A stretch of 64,000 nucleotides of DNA from an uncultured Candidatus Binatia bacterium (GTDB taxonomy: Bacteria; Desulfobacterota; Binatia; UBA9968; JAJDTQ01). Of this stretch, positions 12,871-20,872 are shown piece by piece. Below the pieces are notes generated by a model that saw nothing but the letters and a program-made list of their open reading frames with translations, was not told where the DNA came from and made no database searches. The stretch covers positions 1,536,001-1,600,000 of the forward strand of contig OZ251459.1 in the NCBI GenBank assembly GCA_965242525.1, given 5' to 3'. Each line of letters starts with the position of its first letter. Within the stretch, counting starts at the first letter, position 1. The translations under genes and the position numbers were made by a program.

Positions 12871-14034
12871 CTACCGGCCGAAGCTCCCCTCCCACATCAT
12901 CTCGACGGCCTTCGCATAGGGGAGCACGGTGACGCCGCCCGCCTTGAGGACCCGGTCGCCCCGATAGACGCCGTAGGCGTGCTGGATGTCGCCGGACTGC
13001 ATCAGGACGTTCAACCCCTTGTGGAAGGTCCCCTTCCAGGCAACGGACGACTTGATCTCGAAGCCCACCGCCTGCTTTCCCCTCTTCCAGACCAGGTCCA
13101 CCTCGTTGCCTGACTCCGTGCGCCAGTAGAAGAACTGTCCACCGTGGGACCGCCAAGCATTGAGGGCGCGGAACTCGTTGAGGACGAAGGTTTCGAACAG
13201 GGCGCCGGTTTCGGCCGCGGAAGGCTTCTCCCGGTGCAGACCCGCCAGGGCGCGCTGCACCCCGCAGTCGAACAGGTAGAACTTGGGATGGGCGGTCTCC
13301 TTGACCTTGGCCCGGTTGCGGTAGGCCGGCAGGCGCCAGCCCAGCAACGTGTCTTCCAGTATGCCGAAGTACCCCTGGACCGTGGACCGGGCCACGCCCA
13401 CGTCCCGGGCGATGTTGGCGATGTTCAGCACCTGTCCGTTCATGAGGCCGGCCACCGCCAGGAACCGATAGAAACCGTCCAGGTTCCTGACCAGGGCCTC
13501 CTGCTGGATCTCCTCCTTCAGGTAGGTCTCGACGTAGGCGTCGAGGAAGTCGATCTTCTCGGCCCGGGTAGCCGACGTGACGCTCAAGGGCAGTTGCCCG
13601 AAACGCAGCGCATCCTGCAAGCGGAAATCCTCGCCCAACTCCAGCAGGCTCAGGGGAAACATCCTCCTCAGGAGGGCGCGTCCGGCCAGCATGTTGGCCT
13701 GGGACCGCTTGAGCTTTCGGGCGCTGGAACCGGACAGCGCAAACCGGCAGGCGTACCGCTCGTCGAACAACAGGGCGTGAACCTCGTCCAGGAGTTCCGG
13801 GAGTTTCTGCACCTCGTCGATGACGACCCAGGCCGGCCGGTTTCCCAGCGCCGCCACTTCCTGCGCGAGAAGGGACGGGTCCCGTCTGTACCGCAGGTAT
13901 TCGCCGGACTTGAGAAGGTCGATGCTCAAGTCCGCATGGCCGAGGCGCTGGGCCAGCCACACGGATTTTCCCGTGCCTCGGGGACCGAACAGGAAGAAAC
14001 TCTTGTGGGGGAGGTCGAGCCTTCGGGGATACAT
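12871..14034 (-). CDS. AAA+ ATPase with C-terminal DUF4143/nuclease-like domain (COG1373)
   Basis: Start MYPRRL; GPRGTGKS, IDEVQK, SGSS, LAGR, PKFYLFDCG, YWRT..EVD..EIK. Confidence 0.85.
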   Translation of the reverse strand: MYPRRLDLPHKSFFLFGPRGTGKSVWLAQRLGHADLSIDLLKSGEYLRYRRDPSLLAQEVAALGNRPAWVVIDEVQKLPELLDEVHALLFDERYACRFALSGSSARKLKRSQANMLAGRALLRRMFPLSLLELGEDFRLQDALRFGQLPLSVTSATRAEKIDFLDAYVETYLKEEIQQEALVRNLDGFYRFLAVAGLMNGQVLNIANIARDVGVARSTVQGYFGILEDTLLGWRLPAYRNRAKVKETAHPKFYLFDCGVQRALAGLHREKPSAAETGALFETFVLNEFRALNAWRSHGGQFFYWRTESGNEVDLVWKRGKQAVGFEIKSSVAWKGTFHKGLNVLMQSGDIQHAYGVYRGDRVLKAGGVTVLPYAKAVEMMWEGSFGR

Positions 14035-14266
14035 GTCGGCGGTTCCGTCGAATTTACCGTAAAAATGACGGAACCACCGACGGCTGTCAACCACCCGGAC
14101 GCGTCGGCCCGGGGCTACCGGGACGCCGCGCCGTTGCGGCGCGTCCCTCGTTTGCGTAAGCTGGACCCAGGAGAACGGGTTTTCAACGGGTTTTCAACGT
14201 GGACGCCGTGGCGGCCGGGCTTCCCTCTCGCTTCCGCCGCCGGCGTCGGCTTGGCGGAGGATCACC

Positions 14267-15082: not shown

Positions 15083-15349
15083 ATGATGAATCGGCCGATG
15101 GAAGTGGAAGCGCGCGACGGCTATCGCATCTGGCTGCGCTACTCGGACGGGACCGCGGGTGAAGTCGATTTGTCGCACCCGGCCGGACGAGGCGTGTTCG
15201 CGGCCTGGAACGACCGCGCTTGCTTCGAGGCGGTCCGTGTAACGGCCGACGGTGGAATCGCCTGGGGAGAGGACCTCGATCTTTGCCCCGACACGATCTA
15301 TATGCAGCTCACCGGGAAACCCAACCGGGAAGTGGCGGATAGGCGATGA
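15083..15349 (+). CDS. DUF2442 domain protein (antitoxin-like)
   Basis: GYRIWLRYSDG..GEVDL..GVF..F..V..GGIAW..DLDLCPD.IY pattern. Confidence 0.75.
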   Translation: MMNRPMEVEARDGYRIWLRYSDGTAGEVDLSHPAGRGVFAAWNDRACFEAVRVTADGGIAWGEDLDLCPDTIYMQLTGKPNREVADRR

Positions 15350-15603
15350 GCCTCAACATCAAAGACGCCGAGGCCTGTCGACTCGCCGGCGAGCTCGCGC
15401 GGCTGACTGGCGAGAGCATGAGCGGCGCGATTACCATCGCGCTGCGCGAACGCCTGGAGCCTGAAAAGCGCCGCCGCGGCGCAGACGCCCTGGCTCGAGA
15501 ACTTCACGTCATCGAACAGCGCTGCGCCAGTCTCCTGGGGCCGGGACCATCGGCCGCGGAGCATGGCGATCTGCTTTACGATGAGCGAGGACTGCCCAAG
15601 TGA
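15346..15603 (+). CDS. vapB: VapB antitoxin (Rv0623-like)
   Basis: MSLNIKD.EA.RLA.ELARLTGES..AITIALRERL...LLYDERGLP. Confidence 0.85.
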   Translation: MSLNIKDAEACRLAGELARLTGESMSGAITIALRERLEPEKRRRGADALARELHVIEQRCASLLGPGPSAAEHGDLLYDERGLPK

Positions 15604-15790
15604 TCGTTGATACTTCGGCAGTCCTTGCCGTTTTGCTTGACGAGCCAGACGCGGGACGCTACGAAGATGCGCGCGGCGGCTTGGCCTCGTCGCATCGCGG
15701 TGGTTGGGTTGCTCGAAGCTGCGATGGTCGTCGAAAGCAGAGGCCGAGCGGGGACGGGACAGGAACTCGACGTGTTGCCAGAAAATTTTG
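15600..15790 (+). pseudogene. vapC: VapC PIN toxin, frameshifted and truncated
   Basis: MIVDTSAVLAVLLDEPDAGRYEDA in one frame continues as AAWPRRIAVVGLLEAAMVVESRG..GQELD in another; C-terminal half absent. Confidence 0.8.
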
Positions 15791-15799
15791 GAGACCGAG

Positions 15800-16246
15800 A
15801 TGGAAATCTCTGATGCAACCGTATGGCAGGTGGCCGCAGGAGACAGGAAGAGATCCTACCAGGATGTGTTTCTGGATTGGGACGTGGTTTGTATTGGTCC
15901 AGGCGCCAGAGGGGAATGGCCGAAGTGCAAGGAGCAATTGATTAAGGATGGCTTCAGTCTTAAGGGACTCAACAAAATCGAAAGATTACACAATGAGATG
16001 AAGGAGGGAGACGTAGTCGTCTTGCGCATCGACACAGGAAAGGTCTACGGAGTAGGTCGAGTCGTCGGCGACTGCTGCTGGAACGACCACTTCGGAGATA
16101 TTGACGGCTGGGACCTTCAATTCGTCCGACGTGTAGTTTGGCTTTGGGATTATCGAAAAGATAATGATGGCAAGCCAAAGGGCTTCGAAGCCGGCGAAAT
16201 GAGAGGGGTGCCGCGGTTCTACAACTTAAGGAAGATGGACCCGTGA
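15800..16246 (+). CDS. Putative EVE/PUA-like modified-DNA reader domain (possibly N-terminal half of a split restriction endonuclease)
   Basis: W..AAG...GPG..EMKEGDVVVL..VYGVGRVVGD..W..RRVVW pattern resembling Mrr/McrB-type N-terminal domains; lower GC. Confidence 0.5.
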   Translation: MEISDATVWQVAAGDRKRSYQDVFLDWDVVCIGPGARGEWPKCKEQLIKDGFSLKGLNKIERLHNEMKEGDVVVLRIDTGKVYGVGRVVGDCCWNDHFGDIDGWDLQFVRRVVWLWDYRKDNDGKPKGFEAGEMRGVPRFYNLRKMDP

Positions 16247-16905
16247 GAAATTGGATCGGTCATCCCGATTTTCCACCAAGGGAGTTACGGTGTGACCTTG
16301 TTCCACTTCCAGATGGCGAGCCAAAATCCATTGAGGTCTCGGAGGTGGCCGACTACCTGTTCGATCAAGGGGTCGCCGCAGACTCGATCAATGCCCTCAT
16401 CAAAGACTTGGGAGAGCTGCAGCGCATCGCTTCCTGGTACTATCGGAGCGGCACAAGGCCATCCGAATACGAAACAGTGGCTTACCTGGGGGTTCCGTTA
16501 CTTCGGGCTTTGGGTTGGACACCACAACAAATGGCGGTTGAATGGGACAAGATTGATATTGCTCTGTTCAGTCGACTCCCCAGAGGCGATAAAAACCTGG
16601 CGGTGGTGGTCGAGGCCAAAAAACGTGATGACGCTGTCATGTCTTATGAGGTCCTGTTACAAGCCGTAGGTTACGCGACCCAGCCCGGACGTGACGAATG
16701 CCACCGGATCATATGCACGGATGGGATCCGATACGCTGTGTATGTCAAGGGCAACAACGGCCATTTTCCTGATTCTCCTTATACTCCGACAGCCTACCTC
16801 AACATAAACAGGATGATGGATGGCTATCCTGTTTTGAAGTGCCCCGGCGCGGCTGAGGCGCTGCGACTGATTTCCTCCGATTGGACGGGCGAAGCACCCG
16901 AATAG
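16243..16905 (+). CDS. PD-(D/E)xK restriction endonuclease domain (HsdR_N-like)
   Basis: SEYETV..L.VPLLRALGW..EW..IDIALF..VVVEAKK..QAVGYA..TDGIRY. Confidence 0.65.
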   Translation: MRNWIGHPDFPPRELRCDLVPLPDGEPKSIEVSEVADYLFDQGVAADSINALIKDLGELQRIASWYYRSGTRPSEYETVAYLGVPLLRALGWTPQQMAVEWDKIDIALFSRLPRGDKNLAVVVEAKKRDDAVMSYEVLLQAVGYATQPGRDECHRIICTDGIRYAVYVKGNNGHFPDSPYTPTAYLNINRMMDGYPVLKCPGAAEALRLISSDWTGEAPE

Positions 16906-17032: not shown

Positions 17033-18748
17033 TTACGACGCATGCATTTCCGAGATAAGCGAACGAGTATCTTCCAACAAGTCCGTGAGTTCCCGGAAGA
17101 GGTTGCTGCGCGAACGCCGCATGTCCCGGAGCTCATCCAGTTGCCCATCCACCTCTGCAAGACGCGTATCCAGGGATTCGGCCACATAGGTGTTGGTCGC
17201 TTCGTCGAAATGGAGTTCGATGGCATGGGCTGCTTCACCGAACCCCGCCCGCACGGCCGTTCGGCCTTCGCGCAGTTCCCGTTCCAGCTTGGCCGCATCG
17301 GCGTCTTCCTTGACCTGGAGCGCAACAGTCAAGACGACCCCCGCTACGCTCAAGACCCGACCGGCGTTCGTGATCGTGCGCGCCCATTTGACCGCTTCCC
17401 AGGGCTTGAAGGACTTTCCGAAGAGGTGTCCCAGGTCTTTTGCGAGACCGTGGGTCGCCGTACCCGAATACTGGCCGAGATTGAACAGACTCGCCCTGTC
17501 CGCGGGATTGAACGAGTGCTTGAGGAGGAACTGCCCGAGTTTGTGAGTCACGTCCGCACCCTGCCTTGCCATGGACAGTGTCTTCGGGTCGATATCGATA
17601 GCCTGGACCCTTTGGGTCAGCCTCGGCATCAGTTCCTTGACGAACTCGCCTTCGAGTATCCGATCTACACGTGCGGCAAGGTCGTTGACCTGCTCCGCCA
17701 TCGTCTCTTGAAGGGCGCCGGACAGAGCGTCCACGTGTTCCTGAACGCGCTCCTGGGCGGCCGCCAGTTCCCGGTTGACGGCCTCGGAGTCCGCCCCCTC
17801 ACGGATCAGCTCGGCCGCGTTGCGGCCTTCCTCCCGAATCCTGGCGGTCGTCTGATGGACCCTGCTTTCCACTGATCGCGAAAGCCGTGTCTTGCTGTCC
17901 AGCAACGCGCGCCTCTGCTGGATCAGCAACTCTTGCAGGGCGTCCACGTCAGGATCATCGCCGGTCTCGGCCGCGAGGGCCTCTTGGAGCGCCTGTTCGA
18001 GGGTGTAGAGCGCCGTCGTATAGCGCCCAGCCAGCCCCTTTTCCCGCACGAACGCATCGAGGTTGTCGATGAAGGCGTCGAAACCGCTCCTCTGCCGGTA
18101 TATCCTGCAAACATCTTCGTCTTCCTCTGCACGGGCCTCCAGCGCGGCCTCGGCGTCCACGAAAGAGAGGCGAAGTTGTTCCGGGGTGAAGGGGACGAGG
18201 ACTCTTCGGAGATCTTGCCGGATCACTTCCTGCGCTTCCGGTGTGTTGCCCTCGGCGCACCTCTGCATCTTGTTGACCACCAACAGCATTTCGTGGGCTT
18301 TTTCCCGTTCGACTGCGAGTTTCCTGAAGTGCTCCGCCATATGGGAGTCGAACAACTCGTTGGTGACGACGAAAACCAACAGGTCGGCCTTGCCGATGGC
18401 CTCGTAGGTGGTTTCGTCGTGGTCGGGCCGCAACTCCGTATGGACACCGGGAGTGTCCACCACCTTGATCCCGTTCCAGTCGAGTTGCCGGCCCTGCTCG
18501 GTGGTGATGCCGCCCCCGATCTCGATGTCTTCTCGACCGGTCATGGCCTTGAGGATGGAAGACTTGCCGGCACTGTATTGACCGGCGAAGACCACCTGCA
18601 CCGATTCTTCGAGAGGCGCCGCTTCTCCCGGAATGCGCTGCGCGAACTCCCGCACCTTGTCGAAAGGCGCATCCTCGAGGACTTCCCTGGCTCTGTCGAG
18701 CAGGGCTTGTCCTCTTTCGAGCCATTGTCCAAGCGCCAGATCCTTCAT
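17033..18748 (-). CDS. Dynamin-like GTPase (LeoA/CrfC-like)
   Basis: G1 AGQYSAGKSS, G2 ITT, G3 DTPG, G4 NKMQ; long helical region and a hydrophobic segment near the C-terminus. Confidence 0.75.
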   Translation of the reverse strand: MKDLALGQWLERGQALLDRAREVLEDAPFDKVREFAQRIPGEAAPLEESVQVVFAGQYSAGKSSILKAMTGREDIEIGGGITTEQGRQLDWNGIKVVDTPGVHTELRPDHDETTYEAIGKADLLVFVVTNELFDSHMAEHFRKLAVEREKAHEMLLVVNKMQRCAEGNTPEAQEVIRQDLRRVLVPFTPEQLRLSFVDAEAALEARAEEDEDVCRIYRQRSGFDAFIDNLDAFVREKGLAGRYTTALYTLEQALQEALAAETGDDPDVDALQELLIQQRRALLDSKTRLSRSVESRVHQTTARIREEGRNAAELIREGADSEAVNRELAAAQERVQEHVDALSGALQETMAEQVNDLAARVDRILEGEFVKELMPRLTQRVQAIDIDPKTLSMARQGADVTHKLGQFLLKHSFNPADRASLFNLGQYSGTATHGLAKDLGHLFGKSFKPWEAVKWARTITNAGRVLSVAGVVLTVALQVKEDADAAKLERELREGRTAVRAGFGEAAHAIELHFDEATNTYVAESLDTRLAEVDGQLDELRDMRRSRSNLFRELTDLLEDTRSLISEMHAS

Positions 18749-18766
18749 TGCTCACAGCCTCCATCT

Positions 18767-20872
18767 TCACTTCATCACGTATAGTTCGGTCAACTGCTGC
18801 GCGAGGCGAATACGAGAGACGGTAGCCGCATCGAGGTCATCTACCGAAACGTGGGCCACCTGAATGTCCGGCTCGATACGGATTTGGCTTCGTTTGCAGC
18901 CGCGCCCGATGACCTGGACGAGGATCGAGACCTTGTTGGGCGTGTTGACCGCATACAGTATATCTTCCCCAAGCAGCTTCTCCAGTCCCCGGTGTACGTC
19001 CTCGGGCATTTTCGCCCCAAGCTCCATCAGCAGCAACATCACTTGTCCGGGCACTCGCGCCACGTCTCGAACCAGACTCTCGCAGTCCTCGCGCCCAAGG
19101 CGTCGAAGCGCCTCATCGAGCAACGCGCGATGCAGGTTCTTCTGCCGCCGGTCGAGTCTCCACGCCAGTCTTCTTTGTGCGTCCGCCAATGCTGAGACAT
19201 CCGAAACGATCGTCGAGAGTTCGCCAAGACAGGCATGAACCTGGTTTTCCAGGATCTCATCGAAAAAGCAGTTGTGGAGTTCCTCTTTGAGCTTGTCTTC
19301 TATCCTTTCGACGTCGGCCTCGAGTTTGTCCTTGAGTTCAACGCGTTGCTTTTGCGCCTTCTCTCTTCGGCTCTCGAAAAGCTGCGAAACGAGCCAACCT
19401 GCCAATCCGACTGCGACTGCAGCCGCGGCCCAGACGAGCGGAACGCCACCAAGGATGAGGGAAGCAATGACGAGTCCTCCCGTAAGGCTGTTGGTGAACC
19501 AGTCCCAGGCGCGTCTCGAATCGAAAATGGCATCCATGCTGATCCGTTTGTCGCCAGCGAACCTGCCGACGAAATCCAACTCGGCCTTCAGTTGGCGTGT
19601 GCTGTCCGATAGCTCATCTCGGCATTCTTCCTGGATCTGCTCGACGAGTTTCTGGGCCTTTTGGCCTAACTGCTGCCTCTCGACCAATGCCTCCCAGCGC
19701 TCTCCTGCATCGCGCCGATCATAGTTGTTCTCCGCAAACGCCGGAATTTCCGCGCGAAGCGCGTTCATTTCCCTTTCGATAAACGTGGCGATGCGTTCTT
19801 CTCCGTCTTTGCGGAACTGGTGGGACCACGTTTCGACCTGTCGCCTCTTGTTGAGGAAAACGCGGCCACTGGAGGAATTCTCATAGCTGAATTTCAGGAG
19901 TTTCTCGCTGAGCTCCATCATTGGACATACGGCGGCGTCGATGAAGCTCTTCCATCGCAGGAAGGCGCCGCGGCCGATCATCTCCGAAACGATTTCTTCT
20001 TCCACACGGTGGAAACGGCTCGCAGATTCCAGGTCTTTCTTTTGCAGCTCGTAGTCGGGCTGCTGGGAGAGGAACTTGGCTCTCAGATGGGTGCTGAAGA
20101 AAGGGATGCGGGCGCCCGGGCCGTATCTGTCCGCAAACTCGTGGAACTGTTCCACGATGGCGCCGAGCCGTTCAGGTTCGAACTTCCTTCTCAAGAGAGG
20201 TAGTTCGTCAGCATTGTGGAGGGCTGCCTTGACGTTGAGGAGGCCCAGGACCGGCTTGCCCAGCGCCCGAACGCGGGCGAGACACTTGGCTTCTTCGTCT
20301 TGCGGCGCGTCGTCGGTGATGAGAAAGAGCACCAGGTCCGCTTGCTTCGCGGCCTCGAACGCGACTTCCTCGTCCTCGCGCCCCTCGAACGCGGCCACGC
20401 CGGGCACATCGGTAACCGCAAGCCCCTTCCACTCGTAGCTCCGCACGTCCCGGGTCGTGCGCTGAGACCCCTTGCCGATGGATGATCCGTCGCCGTTGGT
20501 CAGGATCTCCATCAACGTGGACTTGCCCGCCATCGTTCGACCGAAGAGGGCGATGGAGAACTTGTCGAGGCGCGCGTATTGCTCTGCCAGGGAAGCACGC
20601 AACTGCCTGGGCAACAGATCGAACTGGGATACCGCTTCTTGGAGTTGTCTTCGGAGTTGAGCGCTGAACTCGTTGGTGTTGACCTGTCTGTTGTCCAGCT
20701 TCGAAAGGTTCCGTTTCAGGTCAGCCAAAACCGCATCGGAGTCGACCTGGATCCCCTTGAGCGTCTCGCTTGCGATCCGGTATCCCTCGCGAGCCGTTCG
20801 CCGGCAATCGGCAAGGGCCTGTTCCAATTCGCTCTTTTCCTGCCCTTTGCCAAACCCGAGAAACACGTTCAT
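18767..20872 (-). CDS. Dynamin-like GTPase with TM hairpin and C-terminal NusA-KH-like module
   Basis: G1 GRTMAGKST, G2 RTT, G3 DVPG; hydrophobic hairpin GGLVIASLILGGVPLVWAAAAVAVGLAGWLV; C-terminus VARVPG...IRLAQQLT. Confidence 0.7.
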   Translation of the reverse strand: MNVFLGFGKGQEKSELEQALADCRRTAREGYRIASETLKGIQVDSDAVLADLKRNLSKLDNRQVNTNEFSAQLRRQLQEAVSQFDLLPRQLRASLAEQYARLDKFSIALFGRTMAGKSTLMEILTNGDGSSIGKGSQRTTRDVRSYEWKGLAVTDVPGVAAFEGREDEEVAFEAAKQADLVLFLITDDAPQDEEAKCLARVRALGKPVLGLLNVKAALHNADELPLLRRKFEPERLGAIVEQFHEFADRYGPGARIPFFSTHLRAKFLSQQPDYELQKKDLESASRFHRVEEEIVSEMIGRGAFLRWKSFIDAAVCPMMELSEKLLKFSYENSSSGRVFLNKRRQVETWSHQFRKDGEERIATFIEREMNALRAEIPAFAENNYDRRDAGERWEALVERQQLGQKAQKLVEQIQEECRDELSDSTRQLKAELDFVGRFAGDKRISMDAIFDSRRAWDWFTNSLTGGLVIASLILGGVPLVWAAAAVAVGLAGWLVSQLFESRREKAQKQRVELKDKLEADVERIEDKLKEELHNCFFDEILENQVHACLGELSTIVSDVSALADAQRRLAWRLDRRQKNLHRALLDEALRRLGREDCESLVRDVARVPGQVMLLLMELGAKMPEDVHRGLEKLLGEDILYAVNTPNKVSILVQVIGRGCKRSQIRIEPDIQVAHVSVDDLDAATVSRIRLAQQLTELYVMK

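Follow-up and report, generated by a model that had tools for sequence, protein, structure and literature searches.

A predicted NusA-type tandem of KH-like units at the C-terminus of LeoBC, a dynamin-like GTPase of the Eleos anti-phage gene pair

The gene pair and its setting

A window of 64,000 nucleotides from the genome of an uncultured Candidatus Binatia bacterium (assembly GCA_965242525.1, contig OZ251459.1, forward-strand positions 1,536,001 to 1,600,000; coordinates below are those of the window) carries on its minus strand two adjacent genes for dynamin-like GTPases, LeoBC and LeoA, the first of which encodes the C-terminal module that is the subject of this report. LeoBC, the first gene of the pair (P0001, 701 aa, 18767..20872), was identified from its open reading frame (ORF) and translation and from PADLOC and Pfam matches, while LeoA, its partner (P0002, 571 aa, 17033..18748), identified through PADLOC and Pfam, adjoins it directly downstream on the same strand and is without the KH-like module. 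The TGA stop of LeoBC and the ATG of LeoA are separated on that strand by a spacer of 18 nt (18749..18766), in which a GGAGG ribosome-binding site can be read. The LeoBC protein matches the PADLOC LeoBC family (PDLC03841) at 7.6e-100, with residues 15-636 covering profile positions 6-593 of 601, and its partner matches the PADLOC LeoA family at 1.7e-114. In Pfam, LeoBC is recognised by its GTPase domain only (MMR_HSR1, 2.6e-12, residues 107-213), and LeoA by MMR_HSR1, Dynamin_N and DLP_helical.

Because the LeoBC and LeoA matches lie side by side in a low-GC (guanine plus cytosine) island, the pair is identified by sequence as an instance of Eleos ('Dynamins'), an anti-phage system of two genes whose name comes from 10.1101/2022.12.12.520048. 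In the one case tested against phages, an Eleos pair from Bacillus vietnamensis NBRC 101237, the P-loops of both proteins were needed and only the jumbo phages AR9 and PBS1 were blocked (10.1101/2022.05.11.491447). The pair described here resembles the tested one in the adjacent order of LeoBC then LeoA, in the strong PADLOC matches and in a low-GC setting like that of a defence island. The GC content is 0.58 at 16-20 kb versus about 0.70 in the flanks, and the defence-island setting is further supported by an ATPase with AAA_14 and DUF4143 domains (12871..14094) that matches PDC-S01 (2.5e-60), a candidate defence family of PADLOC. Given the GC drop, the PDC-S01 ATPase and the presence of the module profile in the source genome alone among 301 genomes sampled from the window's phylum, the locus fits a horizontally acquired island.

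LeoBC and LeoA are paralogous over most of their lengths (LeoBC residues 75-538 and LeoA residues 15-524; hhalign probability 99.1%), but past this stretch LeoA has only ~47 residues more, whereas LeoBC has 163. The core of the LeoBC GTPase (G) domain, residues 107-213 (20234..20554, minus strand; Pfam MMR_HSR1), contains an intact P-loop at G111-S118, and G111, G116, K117, S118, D155 and G158 are invariant across 53 LeoBC sequences, as are the P-loop residues G56, G61, K62 and S63 in LeoA. A Kyte-Doolittle scan finds a sole hydrophobic stretch in LeoBC, a hairpin at residues 462-499 (19376..19489, minus strand) that corresponds to a membrane 'paddle' and is interrupted mid-way by a Gly-Gly-Val-Pro break. 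This topology follows the architecture of BDLP- and LeoA-type proteins (PMC4159319) and, because of the break in the middle of the hairpin, both LeoBC termini should be on the same, cytoplasmic, side of the membrane. The hairpin is followed by a long, predicted helical return region, residues 500-594 (19091..19375, minus strand; structural model and VIA alignments), that would run back towards the neck and G domain, and the remainder of the protein forms the module. Coverage by the PADLOC LeoBC model ends at about 570-593 of its 601 positions, immediately before the module or where it begins.

Predicted fold of the C-terminal module

A sequence-only reading of the stretch 18767..19110 (minus strand), which codes for LeoBC residues ~588-701 and the stop, had proposed that the membrane-anchored GTPase ends in a tandem KH module that is NusA-like but degenerate, with its GxxG loops missing. 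For the module, 67 LeoBC C-termini from many phyla were aligned (alignment A2), leaving out 7 of the 73 loci with module matches, three with long tails (L006, L037, L059) and four with partial or weak matches (L036, L069, L071, L077). The AlphaFold2 model built from this alignment has a predicted local distance difference test score (pLDDT) of 95.4, a predicted template-modelling score (pTM) of 0.87 and no residues below a pLDDT of 70. When the model was used as a Foldseek query, ranks 1-17 were all NusA, with a best E of 3.1e-6 and a TMq of 0.70, and the predicted module superposes on NusA, including the packing between the two domains, with a root-mean-square deviation of 2.7 Å over 118 residues. 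The overall fold and tandem packing of the model are those of NusA KH1-KH2, although identity to NusA in the structural alignments is only 15-19%. The proposed tandem was thus borne out by the structural comparison, and the hhalign results given below agree with it.

The module comprises two units. The KH1-like unit, residues 595-643 (18944..19090, minus strand; defined by AlphaFold and by hhalign to NusA 221-273), runs helix, two strands, loop, helix, strand, with strands modelled at 601-607, 611-616 and 637-642 and a helix at 624-634. Upstream of these elements the model places return-region helices at 576-591 and 595-600, the final turns of which serve as the first helix of the unit, and the VIA alignments begin at residue 6 of the model, corresponding to residue 580 of the protein. 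The KH2-like unit, residues 644-701 (18770..18943, minus strand; defined by hhalign and AlphaFold), runs helix, two strands, helix, strand, with helices at 647-655 and 682-695 and strands at 664-667, 672-675 and 698-700.

In type II KH domains, two helices joined by a GXXG loop form the nucleic-acid clamp (PMC11261784). In the model, each unit of the LeoBC module has a single helix where a type II KH domain has two, and the GXXG loops together with the helix before each have been deleted from both units in essentially all members. A GxxG of any kind occurs in 2 of the 67 sequences, at different and unconserved positions, and the clamp residues that are invariant in NusA (D246-R258 and A317-N324 in the NusA of the same genome) fall in gaps or are replaced, so that the absence of these loops that had been read by eye is upheld. 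Since both loops and their preceding helices are gone, the module fails the Pfam KH models and is a KH-derived, NusA-type KH-like tandem rather than a canonical member of the KH family.

The KH1-like unit, without the first KH helix of NusA and without the GXXG loop, carries invariant A-R-x-P-G and G-E motifs, and R606 and E636 are invariant in all 67 sequences. The KH2-like unit, also with its GXXG loop deleted, has a conserved R-I-R-L-A-Q-Q-L-T helix, in which A691, Q692 and Q693 each reach at least 90% conservation. The C-terminus is conserved too, since 40 of the 67 proteins stop exactly in the K701 column and 53 do so no more than one residue from it.

Sequence comparison with NusA

The A2 profile was compared using hhalign with an alignment of 29 NusA sequences from the window's phylum (A3), and the source genome's own NusA was also used. 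A single match was returned, in which module columns 25-126 align with NusA 220-336, that is KH1-KH2, over 101 columns (score 29.57, P 9.3e-4, probability 22.5%), and the only large gaps of this alignment lie at the two GXXG regions of NusA. All five motifs on which the by-eye comparison had been based were located (at residues 601, 630, 650, 664 and 688), and hhalign reproduces each of their NusA pairings. Positions that are conserved in both families and paired by hhalign are R606/R228, P608/P230, G609/G231, E636/E269, L690/L327 and A691/A328.

The score exceeds those of all controls. Reversed profiles scored 17.0 and 17.1, and 100 column shuffles gave a mean of 14.1 (standard deviation 2.4, maximum 22.0), with none reaching 29.57. 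LeoA against NusA (17.8) and the LeoBC core against NusA (20.4) each aligned over 13 columns, and the module against LeoA scored 15.0. Compared with 30 Era sequences, the module profile matched 30 columns of the Era G domain and not the Era KH domain. Taken separately, the KH1-like half aligns with NusA 221-273 (score 21.4, shuffle maximum 17.5) and the KH2-like half with NusA 324-335, where its score of 20.1 is marginal against a shuffle maximum of 19.2. Full-length profiles again give NusA 200-336 with LeoBC 581-700 as their best local match, although weakly (score 25.2, P 0.045).

Other search methods returned little. A BLASTP comparison of the module with the NusA of the same genome gave no match, Pfam found no family at E<=10 in the window's module, and no Pfam KH model, whether KH_5 or KH_2 (PF07650), scored above its gathering score in any of the 67 members. 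The Pfam 'NusA-like KH domain' model KH_5 (PF13184) matched one member (L058) in the correct register at E 0.0011, with 19.5 bits against a cut-off of 27, while matches to DUF6383 in 6 of the 67 (best E 0.003) were treated as noise. PADLOC assigned the module alone to no family, and phmmer of the module against Protein Data Bank (PDB) sequences gave no match. The A2 profile against the same database gave six matches at E<=10, none of them significant, in which Mycobacterium tuberculosis NusA (E 0.39 and 1.4) stood beside Lem3 and a GGDEF protein. A search of all six-frame ORFs of the source genome with the A2 hidden Markov model (HMM) recovered LeoBC only, and NusA was not found at E<=50. The genuine NusA of this genome lies elsewhere, as its single match to TIGR01953 (C1:2446335-2447345), and KH_5 across the source genome finds NusA alone. 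No NusA model of NCBIfam matches LeoBC, in which the N-terminal RNA-polymerase-binding domain and the S1 domain of NusA are absent.

An alternative is that the resemblance arose without KH descent, the module being a pair of generic small alpha/beta sandwiches, with the helix-strand-strand-helix-strand order of ring-building or BON motifs, that AlphaFold and hhalign placed on NusA by chance. The searches that missed NusA bear on this possibility, as do the shuffled and reversed controls that fall short of the observed score and the uninterrupted run of NusA among the top Foldseek ranks; we regard it as improbable. The fold and a NusA-type origin, as predicted from the structural model and the profile comparison, are very probably correct.

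Distribution and conservation

A search with the last 132 residues against 1.84 billion representatives returned 93 matches at E<=1e-3. The full-length matches among them (~690-740 aa, or longer fusions) were hit at their own C-terminal ends, and the rest were mostly short sequences. Six of these possible stand-alone forms of the module were checked; all were singletons on contigs of 1.1-2.9 kb and are probably fragments. A protein of 1266 aa with 7 matched stretches (P0143) was a TPR-repeat false positive. Conversely, a search with the N-terminal 470 residues recovered 65 proteins, of which 61 extend as far as core residue 560. The module is present in 56 of these 61, the other five being four truncations and one LeoBC-LeoA fusion (P0200). 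At the level of genome loci, the module was detected in 73 of 80, and those without a match comprise four cut by contig ends, one fusion, one truncated gene and one too diverged for a single-sequence search. LeoA likewise lies directly downstream of LeoBC in 73 of the 80 related loci, with six contig-end cuts and one truncated gene (L068) as the exceptions. The module is therefore a constant and integral feature of a large clade of ~700-aa LeoBC proteins, always encoded directly upstream of LeoA in a mobile gene pair; it is near-universal within this clade and spread across many phyla.

The hosts include Bacillota, Pseudomonadota, Chloroflexota, Latescibacterota, Binatota, Myxococcota, Nitrospirota and others. 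Phyla are intermixed in the LeoBC tree (19 label changes versus a minimum of 10), where the protein from the window is sister to a Binatota sequence. Mean pairwise identity is highest in the G domain (0.61) and lowest at the N-terminus (0.28), and the two module units (0.37 and 0.40) are about as conserved as the stalk (0.38) and the hairpin (0.41). Across the whole source genome the module HMM finds LeoBC only, and not LeoA. A tblastn search of plasmids and phages with the module gave no match, and in the ESM Atlas the module query gave no usable match while the whole-protein query returned GTPase-labelled clusters only.

The founders of the family name, LeoC, LeoB and LeoA of enterotoxigenic Escherichia coli (ETEC) H10407, are similar to the present pair in being paralogous dynamin-like proteins with a membrane hairpin (PMC4159319). 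There, LeoC and LeoB are the two parts of a split first gene, and LeoB (566-579 aa) has only ~85 residues after the hairpin. The LeoB model finds the H10407 gene at 7.2e-226, but a search of that chromosome with the module profile gave no match at E<=10, and the ETEC Leo lineage is for this reason taken to be without the module. There are thus two Leo lineages, one with the module and one, of the ETEC type, without it.

Within the lineage that has it, the module stays constant despite varied N-terminal extensions and some extra tails. The N-terminal additions include ankyrin repeats in two proteins (P0072, P0079) and 120-313 extra residues in others (P0012, P0062 and P0074 among the extended ones), and may be sensor-like parts of the LeoBC family. 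One further protein (P0155) has a second, partial LeoBC-like core. Six viral-labelled IMG/VR contigs (L141-L146) all carry complete pairs of LeoBC, with the module, and LeoA; the pair is therefore sometimes carried by phages or prophages. In the fusion mentioned above (L029; P0200, 829 aa, from one Binatia genome), the LeoBC core continues directly into the LeoA reading frame with the module missing, the LeoA part is broken off and a further fragment follows, so this is probably a decaying locus.

Possible roles of the module

The explanation that we favour overall, with a probability of roughly 0.55, is that the module derives from the NusA KH tandem, has lost its clamps and now works within the dynamin pair in protein docking or in regulation. 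Under this explanation, a NusA-type KH1-KH2 tandem would have lost the first helix and the GXXG clamp of each unit, leaving two helix-strand-strand-helix-strand units packed as in NusA that would most likely no longer act as a canonical binder of single-stranded RNA. The helices that follow the hairpin in proteins of the BDLP and LeoA type return to the neck beside the G domain (PMC4159319, PMC6104087). As the module follows the helix returning from the membrane hairpin, the same architecture would place it near the G domain and neck, on the cytoplasmic face.

A docking or regulatory role within the LeoBC-LeoA machine, which on its own we would put at about even odds, is favoured by analogy with other GXXG-less KH modules and with the accessory domains of dynamins. 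Campylobacter jejuni DLP1 has an accessory 'assembly domain' of ~120 residues that is essential for DLP1/DLP2 oligomerisation (PMC6104087). Like the LeoBC module, this domain is a globular accessory part on one member of a bacterial dynamin pair, situated by the neck and G domain, but it is N-terminal rather than C-terminal, and the likeness is functional, with no homology claimed. The module could by this analogy help LeoBC to assemble with LeoA. Alternatively, it could make assembly depend on the nucleotide state of the G domain, in the manner of the KH-like domain of Der/EngA, as the nucleotide states of the EngA G domains regulate its binding to the ribosome (PMC2673443). Era and Der/EngA similarly consist of a GTPase followed by a C-terminal unit, though this is one type II KH or KH-like unit whereas LeoBC has a NusA-type tandem, and LeoBC has a dynamin stalk and membrane hairpin between its G domain and the module. 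The best Pfam match of the LeoBC G domain is the family of Era/Der-group GTPases. Among degenerate KH domains elsewhere, the GXXG-less di-KH of KHNYN does not bind RNA and has been proposed to provide a protein site (PMC11997328), and the KH-like domains of PARP9, DTX3L and PARP14 mediate protein contacts (PMC11080071). These are likewise KH-derived tandems without functional GXXG in immune proteins, here eukaryotic antiviral ones, but their units are type I KH in unrelated proteins and the likeness is in principle only.

Several observations count against a NusA-derived docking or regulatory module. Sequence comparison alone supports the NusA relationship weakly, given the hhalign probability, the sub-threshold KH_5 match in one member, the non-significant PDB matches and the missed NusA of the same genome. 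The fold comes from a single predicted model, and the training of AlphaFold included NusA structures. R687 (K/R in 93% of sequences) and R689 (K/R in 88%) lie at the site of the former KH2 GXXG loop, the mean net charge of the module is positive (+2.5), and the GXXG-less KH-like domains of Der and RbfA still contact ribosomal RNA (PMC11261784).

The last three of these points make it a live rival, albeit a considerably less likely one, that the module is a nucleic-acid sensor, binding phage or host RNA or single-stranded DNA through a remodelled surface and so triggering or localising the dynamin pair. The two basic residues are the first part of the final helix, on the former site of the KH2 clamp, R606 is invariant, and the two KH domains of the NusA ancestor form one continuous RNA surface (PMC11261784). 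However, essentially all members have lost both clamps and the helix before each, net charge varies between -7 and +8 among members, with 0 for the protein from the window, the R606/R228 and E636/E269 pairings with NusA suggest structural rather than ligand-binding roles, and the GXXG-less di-KH domains that have been assayed did not bind RNA (PMC11997328).

It is very improbable that the module is instead a NusA mimic, a decoy that phage proteins gripping the KH region of host NusA would bind and so set off the GTPase. The superposition on NusA, inter-domain packing included, speaks for such mimicry, but the low identity and the loss of the most conserved NusA surface loops do not. Surfaces in contact with phage proteins usually evolve fast, whereas the module is conserved like a core part and is not diversifying, and the BFVD viral structures hold no convincing partner or look-alike (best TMq 0.28-0.37). 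That Eleos is an anti-phage system also speaks for mimicry, but the jumbo phages AR9 and PBS1 are the only ones reported as blocked by an Eleos pair (10.1101/2022.05.11.491447). Both of these phages rely on RNA polymerases of their own for transcription, which counts against a NusA decoy. More generally, and with low probability, the module could be the trigger sensor of Eleos, in which a phage-made ligand (a transcription-complex component, RNA, or a protein that targets the NusA KH region) would induce GTP-dependent assembly of LeoBC and LeoA on the membrane; if so, an immune receptor would have been made from a component of the host's transcription apparatus. Of the sequence-only reading as a whole, the structural part stands, while its functional suggestions of nucleic-acid sensing and of a decoy find no support here, given the deleted clamps, the 15-19% identity to NusA and a conservation like that of the stalk.

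Returning to a NusA-derived, clamp-less docking or regulatory tandem, the module differs from NusA KH1-KH2 in lacking both GXXG loops and the helix before each and in falling below all Pfam KH cut-offs. It also differs in context, being carried by a membrane GTPase without the N-terminal or S1 domain of NusA, which is a transcription factor. The Eleos system is already known, but the KH-like module appears to be undescribed. The available portions of the two Eleos papers (10.1101/2022.05.11.491447, 10.1101/2022.12.12.520048) mention no C-terminal KH-like domain, a literature search that covered neither subscription journals nor preprint supplements found no description of the module, and searches for a KH domain with dynamin-like or bacterial dynamin proteins yielded unrelated papers only, one of which reports that DynA binds RNase Y via its N-terminal 57 residues (PMC3460841). 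Public source names and Atlas cluster labels for LeoBC proteins read only 'GTPase' or 'hypothetical'. As a conserved domain of LeoBC that is predicted to fold separately, the module offers an experimental handle on the assembly of the Eleos pair or on what the pair senses. With it, the degenerate KH tandems known from immune proteins gain a bacterial example.

Neighbouring genes

Directly upstream of LeoBC, the window encodes a Gly/Ala-rich protein of 353 aa (P0003, 20943..22004) with hydrophobic segments at residues 224-310 and no family in Pfam, PADLOC or NCBIfam. It was considered as a third Eleos component; its homologues occur in one Binatia genome only (L001, L009), away from LeoBC there, and the protein is probably outside the system.

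On the other side of the pair, between LeoA and the remnant of a toxin-antitoxin locus, two plus-strand ORFs of 180 aa and 220 aa overlap by 4 nt (15704..16905). Neither has a Pfam family, and the 180-aa ORF has only a weak PADLOC match, to PDC-S02 (best 0.0023); they are a possible further defence-island pair. The remnant (15346..15941) consists of an Rv0623-like antitoxin gene (Pfam PSK_trans_fac, 8.6e-23) followed by an ORF from 15600. The first 27 residues of that ORF are weakly PIN-like (E 0.067, profile positions 1-24 of 120) and its remainder has no PIN match, and the toxin gene that followed the antitoxin may have been broken here, at the edge of the low-GC island.

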